From an uncultured Gammaproteobacteria bacterium (GTDB taxonomy: Bacteria; Patescibacteriota; Patescibacteriia; UBA10025; JAHIVO01), in the NCBI GenBank assembly GCA_964628855.1, contig CAZVMV010000003.1, positions 9,665-73,664 of the forward strand: DNA of 64,000 nucleotides, read 5' to 3'. The position numbers were made by a program, and so were the translations under genes. Numbering within the stretch: the stretch's first letter is position 1; every line of letters starts with the position of its first letter. Under the pieces are notes generated by a model, which worked only from the letters and a program-made list of their open reading frames with translations, was not told the origin of the DNA and searched no databases. Below, one piece after another: positions 3,545 through 54,808 of the stretch.

Positions 3545-4903
3545 TTAGCAACCACGCATGACAAACGGTCCGGTCAGAACCGTGCCGAGCTGGAGGCAGT
3601 CTTTGGCGCCGTGTACCTTCTTGTCGCGGCGGGCCGTGACGATGATGTCCGCCAGATGGCAACCGGCATAGTGCGCAGTGACGCGCATGAACCAGGTATC
3701 CTGTTTCGTATTGCCGTCCTCATCGAAATAGAGGAATGAGATCGGTCTGTTTTCGATCTCTTCCTGGAGGATGAAGCGATAGTGGGACTGACAGGCGTCA
3801 GCCAGTATGGTGCCGAAGTTCTCTTCGTCAGAGAAAATGGTCCCTTTCATGCCGCTGGAAACTGATTCCTTCAGCACGAAGCGGGTGCCGTTCATCAAGC
3901 CCTGCCAATATTGCAGTTTCTGGCGTTTGCCGATCAGGAAAGTTCGCGGGATGAACGAACGTATCGTCTCCAGGTGATTGCCCGGTATTTGCGAACGGAG
4001 GATGGATTCGAGTTCCTGGTCGCCTTCGTCATTCCGCAGCAGGGCCAGAACGGCCTTGCAGCCAAGGAACGGCTTCGGCGGGATCAGGAAATCTAAATTG
4101 CCGTTCACATAGTTCGATTGCAGCCAGGCATTCAGTTCGCCGTTGTAATAGAGGAACGGGAAGTCTACGAACAGGCGGTCAGACAGCGGCTGATTGCCAA
4201 ATAACAGCTCGTTCCCGGAGACGGACAGGTCATTTTCTGAAGCGACAACCAGGTTGATGCCATGCAGTTTCAATTCGTCCCGCACGATTTCAATCTCCGG
4301 ACGGTAGAACCGTTCACGGTCTGAATAGAGCAGGACGGCAGATTTGGTCCCCGGATTTTTTTTAGCAATTGTGTCGGCCAGAGCGGTTGCGACGCCGGGC
4401 AGGTGGCGGCCATACGGTTTGAGCGCCGTACGGACGCGCGCGGCTAGGATAGAATACCCTAGACCGTGTTTGTTATGGCCGTCGATTTCCGCGATATGGA
4501 ACTGGCCGTCGGTGCCGAGCAACAGGTCAACCTTGCAGATGCCGGGGATACGGTTCGGATTGAGAGGCTGAAGAGGACGGTAGATGTCTGGGACGCCTGT
4601 GTTGAAGATCCGGCGCAAGCCGCGCCAAGTGGCATTGTGGCCGTAGATGTCCGAGTCGGCCAGCGAACAGAGCCGTCCGAGACCGGCATACGTACCGTGC
4701 AAAGCATAGCCGAGCTGGTTCAGGCGCTCGAGCTGGACATTGTCCAGTTCAAGCACTGACGGCGAAAGGATGAACTTGTGTGACTGGGCTCGCGGACCGT
4801 CCCAGAGGCCACTAGACTGGACGATCTGCCGGACGCATTCGCGTTCCGTACATACGCCGTGAGTGCCTTCACCTTCTGATTCGACATAGGGTTTCGGTTG
4901 CAT
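3545..4903 (-). CDS. ATP-grasp superfamily-like protein, possibly circularly permuted (glutathionylspermidine-synthase-like)
   Basis: 452 aa. The C-terminal half carries FVLKESVSSGMKGT, RFILQEEI and FMRVTAHY...RRDKKVHG. The N-terminal KVDLLLGTDGQFHIAEIDGHN looks like the usual C-terminal Mg/ATP strand. FLGCKAVLALL resembles the GSP-synthase motif. Assigned by eye only. Confidence 0.4.
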   Translation of the reverse strand: MQPKPYVESEGEGTHGVCTERECVRQIVQSSGLWDGPRAQSHKFILSPSVLELDNVQLERLNQLGYALHGTYAGLGRLCSLADSDIYGHNATWRGLRRIFNTGVPDIYRPLQPLNPNRIPGICKVDLLLGTDGQFHIAEIDGHNKHGLGYSILAARVRTALKPYGRHLPGVATALADTIAKKNPGTKSAVLLYSDRERFYRPEIEIVRDELKLHGINLVVASENDLSVSGNELLFGNQPLSDRLFVDFPFLYYNGELNAWLQSNYVNGNLDFLIPPKPFLGCKAVLALLRNDEGDQELESILRSQIPGNHLETIRSFIPRTFLIGKRQKLQYWQGLMNGTRFVLKESVSSGMKGTIFSDEENFGTILADACQSHYRFILQEEIENRPISFLYFDEDGNTKQDTWFMRVTAHYAGCHLADIIVTARRDKKVHGAKDCLQLGTVLTGPFVMRGC

Positions 4904-7990: not shown

Positions 7991-8011
7991 CCAGTCTACA
8001 ATCGTATAAAA

Positions 8012-8419
8012 ATGTTTTACGATCTCATAATAATTCCAATAGTATTAGTATTGCTTCGGCTGAATATTCGAAAACTATTCCCGATTGAGAATAGGAGGGA
8101 TAAAGCATTTGTAGTTTTGTTAATAAGCGCGATAATTATCCAGTTGTTCACCCTGGTGATGGACGCACTGATCATAATGGATGCTGGCAAGCTTGGTCGC
8201 GGATTGTTTTTGACGATATATTTGATTGGTATTTTAGTCCTTTCGCCGGTGGCGATTTTTTTATTTTTTTATAGTTTATCGCAGATTAGAAAGCTGGGTG
8301 AAAAAATAGGGGTGCTTGAAAGGCTGCGCACATTACTTGTTTCAATGAAGATTTTATATATTGTGCAATTAGTTTTATATCCCATAAATGTTTTTATGAT
8401 GATGTGGGGCCTGTCTTGA
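8012..8419 (+). CDS. hypothetical integral membrane protein
   Basis: 135 aa with about four hydrophobic segments; AT-rich. Confidence 0.5.
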   Translation: MFYDLIIIPIVLVLLRLNIRKLFPIENRRDKAFVVLLISAIIIQLFTLVMDALIIMDAGKLGRGLFLTIYLIGILVLSPVAIFLFFYSLSQIRKLGEKIGVLERLRTLLVSMKILYIVQLVLYPINVFMMMWGLS

Positions 8420-12634: not shown

Positions 12635-13411
12635 TTATGGATTTAGCCTAGCGCCACCGCTCACTAGTGGGTTGAAACCATTTTTGACCTCGGCGCCATC
12701 GAGATAGCCGTCTCCGTCAGTGTCAGGATTCATCCGGTCAGTACCATAGATTTCCTCCTGTTCATCCGTCAGGCCGTCATTGTCCGAATCCAGGACATTG
12801 TTAGTATTGCCATTGGCGTTCCCGTTCAGATTGGAGTTTGTATTGCCGTTACGGTTGGAGTTTGTATTTAGATTGACAGTGGAGTTTGTATTGCCGTTCA
12901 GGTTGCCGGCTATGTTTACGTTTGTAACTGAATTCGTATTCGTCACAGTGTTGGTGTTTGTGGTATTAGTGTTGAAAAGACTATTCAGGTTATTATTCAC
13001 ATTGAGGTTTGTGTTGAGATTCGCATTAAGGTTAGAGGCAGTGTTGGTATTTACATTTGCCTCATTAGCATTATTCGTGTTGGAATTGCTGTATTTGCTG
13101 AATAGGAAAATTGCGGCTGCGATCAGGACGATCAGGATGGCGAATATCATCAATCCGATCATAATTATTTTACTCCGGCTGTGGCGTGGCGGCTCTGGCG
13201 TACCGTCGCCTGGAACATTTAGATTCCTGGGCAAATTAACCAATGGGTTCTGCGGTGGCGGGACTATTGGCCCGGTTCCCATCGGTGGCGGTGGCATTGG
13301 CCCGGCTGGCCTTTTGGCTGTCTGTTCAACAGGTTTCCATGGGCCCCAATTTTTCGGTTGTTCTGGAGCCTGGGGCGCTTGGCCTTGTGGTCGGGTAACA
13401 TTCTCAAACAT
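12635..13411 (-). CDS. membrane-anchored Asn/Thr-rich low-complexity protein with C-terminal thrombospondin type 3-like Ca-binding repeats
   Basis: Pro-rich N-terminus, one TM segment (IIMIGLMIFAILIVLIAAAIFLF), about 100 aa of N/T repeats, then DSDNDGLTDEQE...NPDTDGDGYLDGAEV. Confidence 0.6.
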   Translation of the reverse strand: MFENVTRPQGQAPQAPEQPKNWGPWKPVEQTAKRPAGPMPPPPMGTGPIVPPPQNPLVNLPRNLNVPGDGTPEPPRHSRSKIIMIGLMIFAILIVLIAAAIFLFSKYSNSNTNNANEANVNTNTASNLNANLNTNLNVNNNLNSLFNTNTTNTNTVTNTNSVTNVNIAGNLNGNTNSTVNLNTNSNRNGNTNSNLNGNANGNTNNVLDSDNDGLTDEQEEIYGTDRMNPDTDGDGYLDGAEVKNGFNPLVSGGARLNP

Positions 13412-14223: not shown

Positions 14224-14398
14224 TTATGCCCATGCTACGACCATGCGTCTCTCACGTTGGTAACGGGCCAGCGTTTATTCCGCCATTTCGTAGTCGCCTA
14301 TTGCCCATGACAACTCAGCGCAGCAGGCGTGCCTCACGGCAGCCGAGTCCCAATGCTCAAAGGCATATAGGATCGTTGTGGCTATTCACGATCCGGAC
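14197..14398 (-). ncRNA. orphan ~200-nt structured transcript (riboswitch/attenuator-like leader of rsmE or independent sRNA)
   Basis: Own promoter at 14432-14405. The 10-nt segment 14331-40 is the exact reverse complement of 14206-15, which covers the terminator loop and 3' strand. Direct repeats CATGGGCA-TA-GG occur at 14293-309 and 14213-34. No ORF on this strand. Confidence 0.45.
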
Positions 14399-14404
14399 GG
14401 CCAT

Positions 14405-14432
14405 ATCTTATCACCGCGCTGCAATTAGTCAA
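14405..14432 (-). promoter_or_regulatory. sigma70-like promoter TTGACT-16-TAAGAT
   Basis: -35 at 14432-14427 and -10 at 14410-14405 on the minus strand. Confidence 0.5.
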
Positions 14433-14462
14433 ATTTATAATTTGCTGATACAATGCTTCCAT

Positions 14463-15509
14463 ATGAGCTTTTCTATCGGCATAGTCGGACTGCCCAATGT
14501 CGGCAAGTCGACGTTATTCAAAGCGCTGACCAAAAAACAGGTTGACGCCTCAAACTATCCTTTTTGCACGATCGACCCGAACGTCGGCACGGTCGCCGTG
14601 CCTGACGAGCGGCTGGAAAAACTGGCCAAGCTTTATGACTCAAAGAAAGTCGTCCCGACAGTAGTCGAGTTTGTGGATATTGCCGGACTAGTCGCTGGCG
14701 CTCACAAAGGTGAGGGACTCGGGAACAAATTCCTGTCGCATATCCGGACCGTCGACGCCATCTGCCAGGTGGTACGCAAATTCTCTGACCCGAATGTCAT
14801 CCATGTCGCCAACAAAGTCGATCCCCAGTCTGACGAGGAAACGATCAGGCTGGAATTGATTTATGCCGACCTGGCGACCGTCGAAAAACGGATCGCCGAC
14901 ACCGCCCCAAAGACGAAAAGCGGGGATAAGGAAGCAGCCAAATTCCTGGCGATCTACCAAAAAATAAAGCAGTTTCTGGACGATGGTAAATTATTGTCTG
15001 AAGTTGATTTGTCGGAAGAGGATAAACTTTCCATCCGTGATCTGAATTTATTGACGGTCAAACCGATGTTACGAGTATTAAACGTAGACGAATCCGAGGC
15101 GGCCAAAGACATCCCCGGCTATATCGTGATCAGCGCTAAGGTCGAGTCAGAGCTGGCGGAGATGTCTGATGCTGATGCCAAAGAGTTTTTGCAGAGCTTG
15201 GGATTGCAAAAAACCGGCCTGGACCGTTTGATTACCGCTGCATACAAAGCTCTCGATTTAATAACATTTTTAACGGCCGGACCTGACGAGACCCGTGCTT
15301 GGACCGTAAAAAGGGGCTCGTCTGCACCCCAGGCAGGAGCGGCAATTCACACTGACTTCGAGCACAAATTCATACGCGCAGAAGTGACTCCATGGCAGGA
15401 CCTGTTGGCATGCATGGGTGAAGTTGGGGCGCGTGAAGCGGGGAAAACCCGGACGGAGGGCAGAGAGTATATAGTCCAGGATGGCGACGTGATTTATTTC
15501 CGGATTTAA
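14463..15509 (+). CDS. ychF: redox-regulated ribosome-associated ATPase YchF
   Basis: Starts MSFSIGIVGLPNVGKSTLF at ATG 14463. Has the C-terminal TGS region AGAAIHTDFEHKFIRAEV. The listed start at 14226 only adds unrelated upstream sequence. Confidence 0.9.
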   Translation: MSFSIGIVGLPNVGKSTLFKALTKKQVDASNYPFCTIDPNVGTVAVPDERLEKLAKLYDSKKVVPTVVEFVDIAGLVAGAHKGEGLGNKFLSHIRTVDAICQVVRKFSDPNVIHVANKVDPQSDEETIRLELIYADLATVEKRIADTAPKTKSGDKEAAKFLAIYQKIKQFLDDGKLLSEVDLSEEDKLSIRDLNLLTVKPMLRVLNVDESEAAKDIPGYIVISAKVESELAEMSDADAKEFLQSLGLQKTGLDRLITAAYKALDLITFLTAGPDETRAWTVKRGSSAPQAGAAIHTDFEHKFIRAEVTPWQDLLACMGEVGAREAGKTRTEGREYIVQDGDVIYFRI

Positions 15510-15612
15510 TTTTTGCCTCAGTTAGCGAAATTTTCAGATTTTTATCTTACGCAACGTGCCCATTACCCTTGACACGGCTATTTTTTATTTACATTAGTAC
15601 TATAATAAAGAC

Positions 15613-15996
15613 AGATTGACAAAAAGAGATTTCCTCGAACCTTCACAAACAAGGAGGTAACTATCTGTAATAAAACCGGTGATATGCGCAATAACCATCT
15701 GTTATTGCGATTAAGAATGTTCGTCCTGACGAAAGTCAGGGCAGTAGTATGGTATAGCCAGACGCCTCAAGCCTGGCAGAAAGGAGGTACTGGGTACTAT
15801 GGTTTGCAGAATCGTTATCGTTAGCAACAGTACCGCGCATTTCTTGCTGGAAAGGAGGTGATCCGTGCAGCGAAAGCTGCATGCCGTGGAAGGGCGCCAG
15901 TCCCTTCCTAATCTGGCAAAAGATTGGAGGTGGTACCTTCGCAGGAAAATAATCTCTTTTCGAATAAGACGCTGGGATTTGTCCCAGCGTTTTTTA
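15613..15996 (+). ncRNA. candidate large structured RNA with four Shine-Dalgarno-like boxes (unknown class)
   Basis: AAGGAGGT at 15651, 15781 and 15852, and TTGGAGGT at 15924. A 9-bp closing helix joins 15622-30 to 15952-60. GAAA-loop hairpins at 15725-40 and 15866-81; further hairpins at 15687-709 and 15888-908. TATAAT at 15601-06 and a strong terminator at the 3' end. Confidence 0.45.
15969..15996 (+). terminator. intrinsic terminator (strong on +, weaker on -)
   Basis: 9-bp stem ACGCTGGGA / TCCCAGCGT with loop TTTG, then a run of T. Confidence 0.75.
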
Positions 15997-16014
15997 CCGT
16001 AAAAATTTAAATAA

Positions 16015-17262
16015 TTACGGCTGAGCAAGCTGGAAAATAAAAATTTCCCGTTGGACCATCTGGTCCGGACGGCTGTAGACCAGCGAGCCTCTGGCGGTCG
16101 GCCCGATTTTTGCGAACAAAGAAATATTGTCTGGGATCGGATTTACGCGGTTGAAGCCGATGGATGACAATTGCTCTAGTATCCGCAGGCAAAAGAAGCC
16201 ATGTGTTGTGGTGATCAAAGGGAAGACGATTACGATCTTGCCATTCGGCCTGAGTATTTTGGAAAAAGTCCGGAAGGCGTCCATATACAATGATTCCAGT
16301 TCCTGGATTATCGCCAGGATGTTGATGATGGGCGTCGACTGGTTCAGTGGCGGGCCGAGGAAAGGTTCGGTAATGATGGCGTCTACAGAACCGGACGAAA
16401 TCGTCTCATCTAGTTTGCGCACGTCAGCCTGGTCCAGGATGATGTCCGTCTGGGGCAGCTGTCGCTGGGTTGCCAGCCAGGCCAAGTTTTGTTTCGTGTC
16501 GATGACAGCTTTGGAGCTGATGTCGCTTCCGGCGATGCGGTGGTACCCCATAGCTAATGCCTCCTGTAAAATAGTCCCTGACCCGCAAAAAGGATCGAGG
16601 AGGTACTTGTCCGAAGTGACTCCGGCCAAGTTGATCATGATTTTTGCCAGCTTGGGGGGCAGCATTCCAGACCGAGCATCGCGTCTCGGGCGACCGTAAT
16701 CTCGCGCTGAGTAATCCTCATAGTCCTGGATGGTCAAAGTCTTTCCGAAATATATCTGGCTCAGCCCGCTGATGACCAGGCAGTCCGCGCCTCGTTCTAA
16801 AACATTATTTTTATCGATAATAACGCTGGAAAGCGCCGCCTCGGTGCTGGTGAGCAGCCTGGCATTTTTTCCGTTTTGTTTCAGGTCTTTTTTTATGCTC
16901 AGGCCGATGGCGCCGACTTTTTTCCTTTCGCGTGTGACGGCGTCACCATATAGGCTGAAACCGAATATCACTTTTTTTTCCTGGGGCGGGAAAACATCTG
17001 ACACCAGCATGTCCGGGGTCAACACTGAGAAAAGGTCGTTTAGGGTTTTTACATTCCGGAAGATAACCCCGATCTTGATGCATCCGCCGAGGGCAGCTTG
17101 CCATGCTGACGCGTCAATTTGAGAAGTCGTTTCCACAATCAAAGCCTGGCTGATCAGCTCGTAAATCTTCATTTCTGTCCGGAATCTCTTGGCCAGGCTG
17201 AATATCTCGGCTACTGACAGAATCGGGTTGTGTCCAAGGATAAATGCGTATGTATATGTCAT
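16015..17262 (-). CDS. Trm11/TrmG10-like RNA (guanine-N2) methyltransferase with N-terminal THUMP-like region
   Basis: 415 aa. RPRRDARSGMLPPKLAKIMINLA, LLDPFCGSGTILQEA and IITEPFLGPP. Confidence 0.65.
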   Translation of the reverse strand: MTYTYAFILGHNPILSVAEIFSLAKRFRTEMKIYELISQALIVETTSQIDASAWQAALGGCIKIGVIFRNVKTLNDLFSVLTPDMLVSDVFPPQEKKVIFGFSLYGDAVTRERKKVGAIGLSIKKDLKQNGKNARLLTSTEAALSSVIIDKNNVLERGADCLVISGLSQIYFGKTLTIQDYEDYSARDYGRPRRDARSGMLPPKLAKIMINLAGVTSDKYLLDPFCGSGTILQEALAMGYHRIAGSDISSKAVIDTKQNLAWLATQRQLPQTDIILDQADVRKLDETISSGSVDAIITEPFLGPPLNQSTPIINILAIIQELESLYMDAFRTFSKILRPNGKIVIVFPLITTTHGFFCLRILEQLSSIGFNRVNPIPDNISLFAKIGPTARGSLVYSRPDQMVQREIFIFQLAQP

Positions 17263-52803: not shown

Positions 52804-54573
52804 TTAGACTTCAATCACTACTGGTAACACCATCGGCCGCCGCTCCGTCTTTGTAAACAGGAACTGGCCGATCTGGTCTCGGATCTTGTTCTTGATGAAG
52901 GATTCGTCAGCGGACGTACGAGGGTCGCGATCCTTTAGCAGTTTTTTCACCTTGTCGCGCACCTGGTCGATAAGTTTCTGGTTTTCCTTCATATAGATGA
53001 AGCCGCGTGAGATGATGTCTGGGGAGTTTATCAGGTCACCCGTGCGTGAGCTGATTTTGACGATAATGACGAACATGCCGTCCGCGGCAAGTGCCTGACG
53101 GTCACGCAATACGACGTGGGAAATGTCCCCGATCCCTAGCCCGTCCACAAAGACATAGTCAGTCGGTACTTTTTTGTTCATAATTTTAGGCTGGCCCTTG
53201 CCGAATTCAAGAATGGAGCCATTATCCAGTACGAAAGTATTTTCCGGGCGGAAACCGTCGCGGGTGGCCAGTTTGGCCGCTTCTTTCAGGAAGGCATGGT
53301 TGCCATAGACTGGCAGGAAATAGGTAGGGTTGATCTGGTGCAGGACAGTGAGGATGTCCTGGGCCGTGGAGTGTCCGGACGAATGGACATCCATAATATC
53401 AGAATGGACAACGTTGTCCGATAAACGGTAAAGGTTGTCCTTGAGCCGCTGGATGGTCCGTTCATTCCCTGGAATAACTGAAGAAGAAAAGACGATCGTG
53501 TCTGATTTCTGGATTTTTACGAAACGGTGCGTTCCGTTGACGATTCGTGAAAGCACTGCCTGGGCTTCGCCTTGGGCGCCGGTGCAGAGGACGATCACCC
53601 GTTGGTCAGGGAATTTACGGATGGCCTCGATCGGGATGAGCGTTTCCTTGTGCACTTTGATATAGCCGAGTTTTTTGGATATTTCGACGTTATTTTTCAT
53701 GCTATAGCCGTCGAGCGCCACCTTTTTGCCGATCGATTCGGCGTATTCGAGGACGCGCTTGATCCGTTCGATCTGCGAGGAGAACGTGCCGATGATGATC
53801 CGGCCGGGCGCCTGGCGGATGAGGCGGAAGATGTTGTCGTACATGACGTGTTCCGGGACCCGGGGATTGGTATGAGTGGCGCCGAGGGATTCGAGCATCA
53901 GGATGGTCGGTTTCGGCAGTCTGGCCAGCTGGGAATATTCGACGCTGGCACGGCCGATCGGATTCGGTTCATAAGTCCAGTCACCAGGATGGATTACGGT
54001 GCCGGACGGGGTGTTCAGGATGACGCCGACCGCGTCCATGATCGAGTGGTCGACGGGGAAAAATCCTACGTTGAATTGGCCAAGGCGGATGCGTTGGCTG
54101 ACGTTATTGATCGTAATCGTCTTCAGTCGGCTGGCCGCGCCTTTCTTGTAATCTTCGACGCGGTGTTTGACCATCGCCAAAGTGAGCGGGCGACCGACAA
54201 TGGCCGGATAGCCCAGTTTCTCCAGTAAAATGCCGCTGGCGCCGATATGGTCCAGGTGGCCGTGCGAGAAAATGACGGCGCGGATATTTTTTTCTTTCCC
54301 GCGAAGGTAGGAGGTGTTGGGGATGATGTAGTCTATCCCTGGCATGTCCTCCTCGGGAAACTGTACGCCCATATCGAGGACGACAATATCATGGCCGTAT
54401 TCAAAAACGGTCATGTTACGGCCGACTTCTTCCTGTCCGCCGAGGGGGATAATTTTCAGAGTTTTTGTGCCGCTGATGGGCTGGGGTTTTTGAGTTTGCG
54501 GTCGCTGGTCCGGTGGCAGAGGCGTTTGATGACCCCGGCTGCGGAAGCGACGTTTTTTGTTTTTATGTGACAT
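52804..54573 (-). CDS. rnj: ribonuclease J
   Basis: Metallo-beta-lactamase HGHLDHIG plus beta-CASP and C-terminal domains. MSHKNKKRRF start at 54573. Confidence 0.9.
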   Translation of the reverse strand: MSHKNKKRRFRSRGHQTPLPPDQRPQTQKPQPISGTKTLKIIPLGGQEEVGRNMTVFEYGHDIVVLDMGVQFPEEDMPGIDYIIPNTSYLRGKEKNIRAVIFSHGHLDHIGASGILLEKLGYPAIVGRPLTLAMVKHRVEDYKKGAASRLKTITINNVSQRIRLGQFNVGFFPVDHSIMDAVGVILNTPSGTVIHPGDWTYEPNPIGRASVEYSQLARLPKPTILMLESLGATHTNPRVPEHVMYDNIFRLIRQAPGRIIIGTFSSQIERIKRVLEYAESIGKKVALDGYSMKNNVEISKKLGYIKVHKETLIPIEAIRKFPDQRVIVLCTGAQGEAQAVLSRIVNGTHRFVKIQKSDTIVFSSSVIPGNERTIQRLKDNLYRLSDNVVHSDIMDVHSSGHSTAQDILTVLHQINPTYFLPVYGNHAFLKEAAKLATRDGFRPENTFVLDNGSILEFGKGQPKIMNKKVPTDYVFVDGLGIGDISHVVLRDRQALAADGMFVIIVKISSRTGDLINSPDIISRGFIYMKENQKLIDQVRDKVKKLLKDRDPRTSADESFIKNKIRDQIGQFLFTKTERRPMVLPVVIEV

Positions 54574-54721
54574 AAATATGTTTAGTGTTAGAGACAGGTG
54601 CCAGTGTTCAATAATGATGAGCAAATGACAGAGTCTGCGAATTAGAAATTAATTAAAAGGGTGTAAATATTTTTTGATTGTTTGGTGTCTGGATTATGGA
54701 AATTATTAAAGGCTAAGAGGA

Positions 54722-54808
54722 TGGTGCCCAGGGGGAGAGTTGAACTCCCATAGCCTTACGGCTACACGGCCCTGAACCGTGCGTGTCTGCCAATTCCACC
54801 ACCTGGGC
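54722..54808 (-). tRNA. tRNA-Leu (anticodon CAG), CCA encoded
   Basis: Hand-folded cloverleaf. Acceptor GCCCAGG / CCTGGGC, anticodon loop TTCAGGG, long variable arm, T-arm GGGAG-TTCAACT-CTCCC, discriminator A plus CCA. Confidence 0.92.

Follow-up and report, generated by a model that had tools for sequence, protein, structure and literature searches.

The window analysed here is a 64 kb stretch of contig CAZVMV010000003.1 and belongs to a genome of the Patescibacteria, also known as candidate phyla radiation (CPR). According to the sequence and the list of open reading frames (ORFs), its ychF gene (stop at 15509) and a convergent Trm11-like ORF (16015-17262, minus strand) enclose a gap with four Shine-Dalgarno (SD)-like boxes. 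We suggest that the boxes are part of a conserved transcription unit of about 385 nt, which would extend roughly from 15613 to 15996 on the plus strand and have its own -10 box and intrinsic terminator. Based on sequence comparison, we give a probability of roughly 0.55 to the reading that this unit is primarily a messenger for an unannotated small basic protein with a non-AUG start, and not a pure ribosome decoy. The best explanation, in our view, joins a small-ORF mRNA with two orphan boxes, boxes 3 and 4, that may resemble the STAB-SD of Bacillus thuringiensis.

The first-pass annotation of the gap had proposed a structured RNA and had pointed to the regions downstream of ychF in related genomes. 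Seven further lineages (L084, L085, L081, L088, L093, L089 and L095) indeed have the four-box unit there, in the same syntenic position. In all eight lineages it lies between the Trm11-like gene and ychF, always on the ychF strand. The contigs of the relatives have the gene order rpsF-ssb-rpsR, Trm11, gap, convergent ychF, rsmE. The Trm11-like protein led to relatives at 71-73% and approximately 55% identity. The homologues stem from 12 exact-protein look-ups and comprise eight distinct sequences; duplicate contigs were without polymorphism.

A proposed small protein gene with a near-cognate start

The first-pass annotation saw no credible ORF in the gap. This was wrong, as a conserved non-AUG ORF at 15663-15824 on the plus strand had been overlooked. 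This ORF, here named ORF-A, has 53 codons, an ATC start and a TAG stop, and its predicted product is (M)CNKTGDMRNNHLLLRLRMFVLTKVRAVVWYSQTPQAWQKGGTGYYGLQNRYR. Box 1 (AAGGAGGT, 15651-15658, plus strand) is the candidate SD of ORF-A and has the consensus A.AGGAGG (at least 75% of the eight lineages, the threshold for all box consensus sequences given here). In 8/8 lineages a near-cognate or TTG start codon, each one base away from AUG, is located exactly 5-6 nt after box 1. The window and L084 have ATC, L085, L089 and L095 have TTG, L081 has ACG, and L093 and L088 have ATT. Contrary to the expectation of a canonical start, the codon is never ATG or GTG in the eight lineages, and this is why gene callers miss ORF-A.

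Each of the eight lineages keeps the ORF-A frame open over 43-57 codons, whereas at the other two offsets a stop is reached after 1-27 codons. By dinucleotide shuffles, with probabilities multiplied over six lineages, a frame this open has a chance of 9e-5. Whole transcripts were also translated in all frames and compared blind to frame, and between diverged lineages the ORF-A frame gave the best protein score (window-L093, 65 vs 32; L085-L093, 54 vs 29; window-L081, 52 vs 35; L089-L095, 56 vs 39). In a nucleotide-only alignment of five lineages, the third codon positions of ORF-A vary most, with 5.85 differences per column vs 4.33 and 4.49 (p = 0.009). An N-terminal motif, G-D-x-R-N-N-H-L-L-x-R, is kept through synonymous codon changes. 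Glycine is encoded by all four of its codons (GGT, GGA, GGC and GGG), and the other alternations are AAC/AAT, CAT/CAC and CTG/TTG/CTT. The window and L084 differ by an in-frame 3-nt indel in ORF-A. Conserved residues are found upstream of the first ATG of the window (15684), where L084 has AGG, and translation must therefore begin at a near-cognate codon.

The predicted ORF-A peptide is basic, with a net charge of about +8. About 9 Arg/Lys in 53 residues are spread along a predicted helix, which AlphaFold, run on the single sequence, places at residues 5-32 and follows with a disordered tail (mean pLDDT 68). We did not find relatives of ORF-A in Pfam, NCBIfam or the PDB sequences. On record are a truncated 46-residue call at this locus and one TTG-started homologue, that of L095.

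ORF-B and rejected reading frames

Box 2 (GAAAGGAGGT, 15779-15788, plus strand) lies 112-152 nt from box 1 and has the consensus GAAAGGAGGTA. In seven of the eight lineages it falls inside ORF-A and encodes Lys/Gln-Gly-Gly (Lys-Gly-Gly in the window). Box 2 is also the candidate SD of ORF-B (MVCRIVIVSNSTAHFLLERR, 20 codons, 15799-15861, plus strand), which begins before ORF-A ends, in the +1 frame relative to it, and has its TGA inside box 3. Every lineage has an ATG or GTG 5-11 nt downstream of box 2, and the ORF that it starts is 12-22 codons long and stops within box 3 or 2-3 nt before it. The window ORF-B ends in ...ERR*, encoded by GAA AGG AGG TGA, which is box 3 itself. Translational coupling is usually marked by a stop codon next to the SD that follows. 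The ORF-B peptide is not conserved (2 synonymous vs 8 non-synonymous changes between the window and L084), and it looks as if only the act of translation is conserved in ORF-B, not the peptide. A programmed frameshift joining ORF-A and ORF-B was rejected, as the frame of ORF-B relative to ORF-A varies (+1 in five lineages, -1 in two and 0 in one).

The ORF at GTG 15865 (ORF-C, 45 codons) was rejected as a gene. L084, the nearest relative, has AAG-TAG at this place, other relatives have assorted non-AUG codons at the same offset (AAG, ACG, CTG, ATT and ATA), and no frame wins across lineages. The three third-position differences in ORF-C between the window and L085 are too few to count, and upstream of box 4 a 1-nt indel separates the window from both L084 and L085. 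A fusion of ORF-B and ORF-C by read-through of the UGA was rejected as well, as L084 has three different stop codons in that frame.

It should be noted that the first-pass annotation already listed the 20-codon ORF from ATG 15799 and the 45-codon ORF from GTG 15865, both of which are in the ORF list. Its pairing of box 2 with ATG 15799 stands; GTG 15865 is not conserved, and the pair of box 1 and ATC 15663 was missed. Two coupled micro-ORFs had been offered as an alternative to a decoy, and this comes closer to our reading, but with different ORFs, as the 20-codon ORF is kept in position only and the 45-codon ORF is not kept. Conservation of these two ORFs at the protein level had also been considered. 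Neither peptide is conserved; the boxes are.

Orphan boxes 3 and 4

The sequence AAGGAGGT is found at 15651-58, 15781-88 and 15852-59, and TTGGAGGT at 15924-31. There are 7 copies of AAGGAGGT in the 64 kb vs 1.4 expected, a count that 0/100 shuffles attain. A stretch of 208 nt holds three of these copies. The remaining four, outside the gap, precede long ORFs of 100-402 codons and are true ribosome-binding sites of long genes. Genuine genes of this genome have GGAGG and then ATG 4-8 nt later. The gap is the only cluster of at least three RGGAGG in the window, and the clustering of the boxes is beyond chance. Across lineages, the boxes stand out as the best-conserved part of the locus, and most of the intervening sequence has diverged past easy alignment.

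Box 3 (GAAAGGAGGTGATCC, 15850-15864, plus strand) lies 53-84 nt from box 2 and is a 15-nt perfect complement of the canonical 16S 3' tail GGAUCACCUCCUUUC; positions 15851-64 read AAAGGAGGTGATCC. Its consensus, GAAAGGAGGTGATC, has 14 nt, and no element of the unit is more conserved. Box 3 complements the entire free, single-stranded canonical 16S tail; the 16S gene of the organism itself is outside the window. Box 4 (TTGGAGGTGG) follows 67-116 nt from box 3, and together with a downstream ACCTTC that is able to pair with it locally it occupies 15924-15941 on the plus strand. Its consensus, GGAGG.G, is kept in 7/8 lineages. We did not find a cognate or near-cognate start 3-10 nt after box 4 in the window or L084. 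Among the eight lineages there is no conserved ORF behind box 3 or box 4, and no reading frame is favoured across lineages in the 3' half of the unit, downstream of box 3.

Transcription signals

Upstream of box 1, the plus strand has a promoter-like region at 15569-15606, consisting of TTGACA (15569-74), a 26-nt spacer and TATAAT (15601-06). TTGACA-N26-TATAAT is kept in the closest relatives of the window, and a TATAAT or TATACT is located 41-69 nt upstream of box 1 in 8/8 lineages. With a spacer of 26 nt and not 17, the arrangement does not fit a sigma-70 promoter, and a consensus promoter scan of the region reported nothing. The unit would end at an intrinsic terminator at 15969-15996 (plus strand), which in the minimum free energy (MFE) fold is a stem-loop followed by a T-run of six, and which lies 19 nt away from where the convergent Trm11-like gene stops. 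A hairpin with a T-run also closes the unit in 6/6 relatives for which the 3' end was fetched. A simple terminator scan did not flag the stem-loop at 15969-96, probably because the stem extension consumes two of the six T.

The -10 box and the intrinsic terminator are kept in relatives, which bears out the plus-strand assignment made in the first-pass annotation. The same annotation had seen a mimic of the 16S tail on the minus strand. We rejected this candidate, as it is the plus strand that has ORF-A, the -10 box and the T-run and that in most cases folds better.

The terminator scan found no plus-strand terminator between ychF and the unit, including the block at 15510-15540, and transcripts of ychF may thus read through; this read-through probably also feeds the unit. 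A block of approximately 30 nt, TTAATTTTTGCCTCAGTTAGCGAAATTTTC (15510-15540, plus strand), stands directly 3' of the ychF stop and in the alignment is kept in the window, L081 and L084 and partly in L088. Together with the far TTGACA, this block (15510-15606) could be a regulator binding site or part of an unusual promoter architecture.

RNA structure

The gap folds better than shuffles, with z = -6.4 for the plus strand and z = -5.3 for the minus strand. The elements listed in the first-pass annotation (the boxes, the hairpins at 15725-40 and 15866-81, the complementary 9-mers, the TATAAT and the terminator) are all present where it placed them. In the MFE fold, two local plus-strand hairpins are formed in ORF-A, CGCAAUAAC/GUUAUUGCG (15687-15709) and CCUGAC-GAAA-GUCAGG (15725-40). 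These are helices 3-4 of a four-sequence consensus and show one-sided and a few two-sided changes. L093 has an equivalent hairpin with a different stem sequence.

Hairpin H1 (UGCAGC-GAAA-GCUGCA, 15866-15881, plus strand), directly 3' of box 3, is the most convincing structural element. In brief, H1 is helix 9 of the consensus and is 100% paired in three aligning sequences, with GCAGC-GAAA-GCUGC in the window, GCAGC-UUAC-GCUGC in L085 and GUAGU-AUUU-GCUAC in L084. L081 has GGACG-UUU-CGUCC at the same place. In L084, one pair of H1 is changed in a compensatory manner (C-G to U-A) and another in a compatible manner, and the loops GAAA, UUAC and AUUU differ. The hairpin domain H2 (GGAAGGG-CGCCAGU-CCCUUCC plus flanks, 15884-15919, plus strand, helices 10-12) is approximately 95% identical between the window and L085 and has diverged in L084.

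The architecture proposed in the first-pass annotation did not hold up in the relatives. AAAAGAGAT (15622-30) is the exact complement of ATCTCTTTT (15952-60), and the resulting closing helix, or 5'-3' fold-back, has z = -2.6 in the window vs +0.9 in L084, +0.9 in L089 and +0.2 in L095, where it is weak or absent. The comparison suggests that the closing helix and the global architecture are not conserved and are strong only in the window. Local SD:anti-SD pairing of the boxes, including box 4, with pyrimidine tracts showed no excess over shuffles (z mostly -2 to +1); on these grounds we do not regard SD sequestration as demonstrated. RNAalifold pairs AGGUGGU of box 4 with ACCAUCU (15694-15700) in ORF-A (helix 2), and its covariation term for the four closest sequences, +1.12, amounts to no net support. 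In the four-sequence consensus, 87.8% of cells are paired vs 79.4% in shuffles, with 14 compensatory pairs vs 5.1; this pair-count test is circular, the structure being derived from the same four sequences, and is suggestive only.

A check against Rfam, as proposed in the first-pass annotation, gave no family match at the gathering threshold in the whole window or the seven homologous loci. In a relaxed E-value scan, the gap gave only a chance 17-bit snoRNA match (E = 1). The Rfam scan also missed a tRNA that ARAGORN calls at 54722-54808, and the absence of an Rfam match is therefore a weak negative here. This call, an 87-nt tRNA-Leu(CAG) on the minus strand, is the only tRNA in the 64 kb. It is below the Rfam tRNA threshold, and the relaxed scan gave only a 25-bit tRNA-Sec match. 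The call may be false, or the tRNA may be an atypical one of the CPR.

Distribution of the unit

Three close relatives lack the unit at this site. In L096 and L097 the convergent stops are only 20-35 nt apart (4249-4283 and 4240-4259, respectively), as compared with the unit at 5240-5671 in L093, and the gap of L091 is unrelated. L093 carries the unit and L096, with 35 nt between the stops, does not, yet their Trm11 proteins share 75% identity. The entire unit is thus polymorphic for its presence among close relatives. Presence in relatives together with absence from close relatives suggests that the unit is conserved but dispensable, or that it is located elsewhere in the genomes that lack it at this site.

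A ychF-based scan of 185,579 species genomes found best relatives of only 60% identity, and in these the unit is absent by blastn, nhmmer and box clustering. No second copy was found in the window or in 98 fetched loci, and blastn against phage and plasmid collections gave no match to the unit. A two-box pattern scan of viral contigs gave two unrelated matches. The IMG/VR viral contig L099 has, at approximately 8000-8130, a miniature unit of similar design without sequence homology to the window. It consists of a -10 box, GAAAGGAGGT, a 17-codon ORF with TGA directly before GAAAGGAGGTGATC, and a terminator, with no obvious second ORF.

In L095, approximately 150 nt of extra sequence lies between ychF and the promoter of the unit (approximately 4700-4850, minus strand). 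It is bounded by the inverted repeats GTCATTGCGAG ... CTCGCAATGAC and looks like a miniature inverted-repeat element. L085 has approximately 240 extra nt at the same site.

Proposed function and alternatives

Boxes 1 and 2 sit where functional SDs sit, before conserved ORFs, and for this reason we read the transcript as a small-ORF mRNA. Box 1 would serve as the SD of ORF-A, and box 2, inside ORF-A, as that of ORF-B. The perfect SD may compensate for the weak start of ORF-A. Initiation factor 3 (IF3) rejects near-cognate starts, and the output of ORF-A would thus depend on initiation fidelity and be sensitive to IF3. The STAB-SD of Bacillus thuringiensis cry3A is an SD-like sequence that pairs with the 16S 3' end without initiation, and the bound 30S subunit blocks RNase J1 (PMC4113751). 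At box 3, the abutting hairpin could block accommodation of a start codon, such that box 3 would bind the 16S tail only. Boxes 3 and 4 would then probably hold 30S subunits or just-terminated ribosomes without productive initiation, and in the ribosome-bound state they may act like STAB-SD and block the 5'-3' exonuclease RNase J. Alternatively, they might keep ribosomes available for re-initiation. The window encodes a clear RNase J (606 codons, 52804-54624, minus strand; RNase_J_b_CASP 2.7e-43, RNase_J_C 1.1e-31), and this CPR organism therefore has Firmicute-style 5'-3' RNA decay.

Several observations weigh against a messenger. In the closest pair, the window and L084, substitutions in ORF-A are not biased to third positions (8, 11 and 9 at codon positions 1, 2 and 3, respectively), pN/pS of ORF-A is only 0.5-0.6, and the ORF-A peptides of L089/L095 and L088 are barely alignable with the rest. 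AUC, AUU and ACG starts are very inefficient in model bacteria. In collections of 5.8 and 1.84 billion predicted proteins, ORF-A matches only this locus and the L095 locus, and the case is built on comparing only eight sequences. The RNAs of 8/8 lineages fold better than shuffles on the plus strand (z -1.8 to -5.5), and several local helices seem to keep pairing through compensatory changes; the unit may thus have a role at the RNA level. A messenger does not account for boxes 3 and 4, which have no gene behind them, and the role that we give to them is pure inference. They also lie 240-310 nt into the transcript of approximately 385 nt, and only box 1 is 5'-proximal.

The unit might instead be a noncoding, or mainly noncoding, structured RNA and serve as a sponge or decoy whose repeated complements of the 16S tail bind 30S subunits. 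In favour of this, no part of the locus is conserved as well as the boxes, 14 nt are kept in box 3, far beyond the needs of an SD, boxes 3 and 4 lack a conserved ORF, all eight homologues fold well, and the excess of paired cells and compensatory pairs in the four-sequence consensus points the same way. We nevertheless consider a decoy unlikely, though it is the least unlikely of the alternatives. It leaves the coding signals of ORF-A and the canonical start of ORF-B in all lineages unaccounted for. The pair-count test is circular and the covariation term gives no net support, the closing helix is not conserved, the SD:anti-SD pairings are no better than in shuffles, and Rfam has no match in the window or the seven homologous loci. 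The decoy of the first-pass annotation thus lacks support in the 5' half, where boxes 1 and 2 serve ORFs, and decoy action or ribosome tethering would be limited to boxes 3 and 4. Next in probability, and doubtful, is an mRNA for a small toxin of a type I toxin-antitoxin system, hok-like, with a cationic helical peptide and translation kept low by the weak start codon, the overlapping coupling ORF and mRNA folding. The distribution is patchy, with clean absence in L096 and L097 and a different gap in L091; the mRNA of approximately 385 nt has an ORF of about 50 codons and an overlapping short ORF; its 5' and 3' ends pair in the window (z = -2.6); and the peptide is one long predicted helix. 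But the peptide, with its high charge, is neither hydrophobic nor membrane-spanning, the pairing of the two ends does not seem to be conserved, and no antisense RNA gene is evident. The unit also occupies one fixed syntenic site, with no second copy in the window or the 98 loci and no phage or plasmid match. We conclude that it is not a typical type I toxin, though the patchy distribution keeps a toxin-like reading alive.

The remaining alternatives are less probable still. One is a bifunctional RNA that would sense or buffer free 30S subunits and IF3 activity and be functionally tied to ychF. Every lineage uses a near-cognate start, and on this view the peptide gene would for that reason be read only when initiation fidelity is relaxed, with the orphan boxes capturing free 30S subunits. 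The YchF protein of E. coli contacts IF3 and the 30S subunit (PMC8138138). The functional link between the unit and ychF is speculative, with adjacency as its sole basis, and we regard this scheme as improbable. If it is true, the unit would be the first known natural RNA whose action goes through the anti-Shine-Dalgarno tail itself. Clearly more improbable is a remnant or variant of an attenuator of the erm/cat leader-peptide type, in which translation of ORF-B would control access to box 3. A short ORF with a canonical start does end at a strong SD with a hairpin directly after it, but nothing regulated lies downstream: there is no conserved ORF after box 3, a terminator follows, and the next gene is convergent. 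The least probable is a sponge for a CsrA-type RNA-binding protein, with GGA boxes that would titrate a translational repressor. The unit has 4-5 A(N)GGA-containing boxes at 60-130-nt intervals in an RNA of 320-400 nt, which suits a sponge. The conserved motif is instead the full SD GAAAGGAGGU(GAUC), complementary to 16S, and not a loop-presented ANGGA; boxes 1 and 2 precede ORFs, and in the MFE fold the boxes are largely within stems. By tblastn there is no CsrA in the window or the fetched loci, a weak negative, as the search covered only about 64 kb of this genome; for Hfq, tblastn likewise gave nothing in the window or fetched loci.

Neighbouring genes

The ychF ORF is listed from ATG 14226, which gives it a 79-codon N-terminal extension (14226-14462) without similarity to YchF. 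The ychF genes of the relatives have 346-352 codons, and the true start is therefore at or near 14463 (MSFSIGIVGLPNVGKS). The protein of a 258-codon ORF at 12635-13411 (minus strand) has a long low-complexity region rich in Asn and Thr and, at its C-terminus, an Asp-rich repeat (DSDNDGLTD...DTDGDGYLDG). The relatives have an unannotated ORF of similar size at the matching position.

Significance and comparison with known systems

On our reading of the locus, a clade of Patescibacteria, with very small, translation-heavy genomes, carries an unannotated small basic protein. The locus would be a natural case of a maximal SD joined to a weak start, of an internal SD that is read as Lys-Gly-Gly codons, and of orphan SDs to the full 16S tail in an organism with RNase J. 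Beyond model bacteria, it would lend itself to tests of SD strength, start-codon fidelity and the protection of RNA by ribosomes. On present evidence, the unit belongs to no curated RNA family and is not a new class of RNA. We describe it as a previously undescribed small-protein locus, of an ordinary kind and with unusual translation signals.

The STAB-SD of cry3A was reportedly described by Agaisse and Lereclus in 1996 and by Mathy et al. in 2007. Boxes 3 and 4 are like it in being orphan SDs complementary to the canonical 16S tail, in a genome that encodes RNase J. The STAB-SD is single and near the 5' end of a long mRNA, whereas the transcript here is short and has two orphan boxes, both in its 3' half, with box 3 reaching a length of 14-15 nt; any stabilising effect would be by analogy only.

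In infC, a near-cognate start behind a good SD makes the output depend on IF3 activity. ORF-A likewise starts at AUU or AUC behind a good SD in several lineages. Unlike in infC, the IF3 dependence of ORF-A is inferred, and the adjacency to ychF in 8/8 lineages may be simple descent.

CsrB and RsmZ also have several GGA repeats in one RNA of approximately 350-400 nt. They present ANGGA in hairpin loops, whereas the unit has the complete SD and two of its boxes serve ORFs. With hok/sok, the unit shares an mRNA of approximately 400 nt, an ORF of approximately 50 codons, an overlapping coupling ORF, a 5'-3' fold-back in the window and a patchy distribution. It differs from hok/sok in its non-hydrophobic peptide, the apparent lack of conservation of the fold-back, the lack of a visible antisense gene and its fixed chromosomal site.

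Typical dual-function small RNAs have a C- or U-rich anti-SD seed, and the unit is without a known base-pairing target. Dual-function small RNAs and coupled small-ORF operons, such as SR1/SR1P, RNAIII/hld and SgrS/SgrT, are structured, 200-500 nt long and encode a peptide of 20-50 residues, and they may in addition function at the RNA level. The near-cognate starts of ORF-A and the G-rich, SD-like repeat set the unit apart from these. Like them, it is a short stand-alone transcript, in which the next SD lies inside the end of the preceding cistron.

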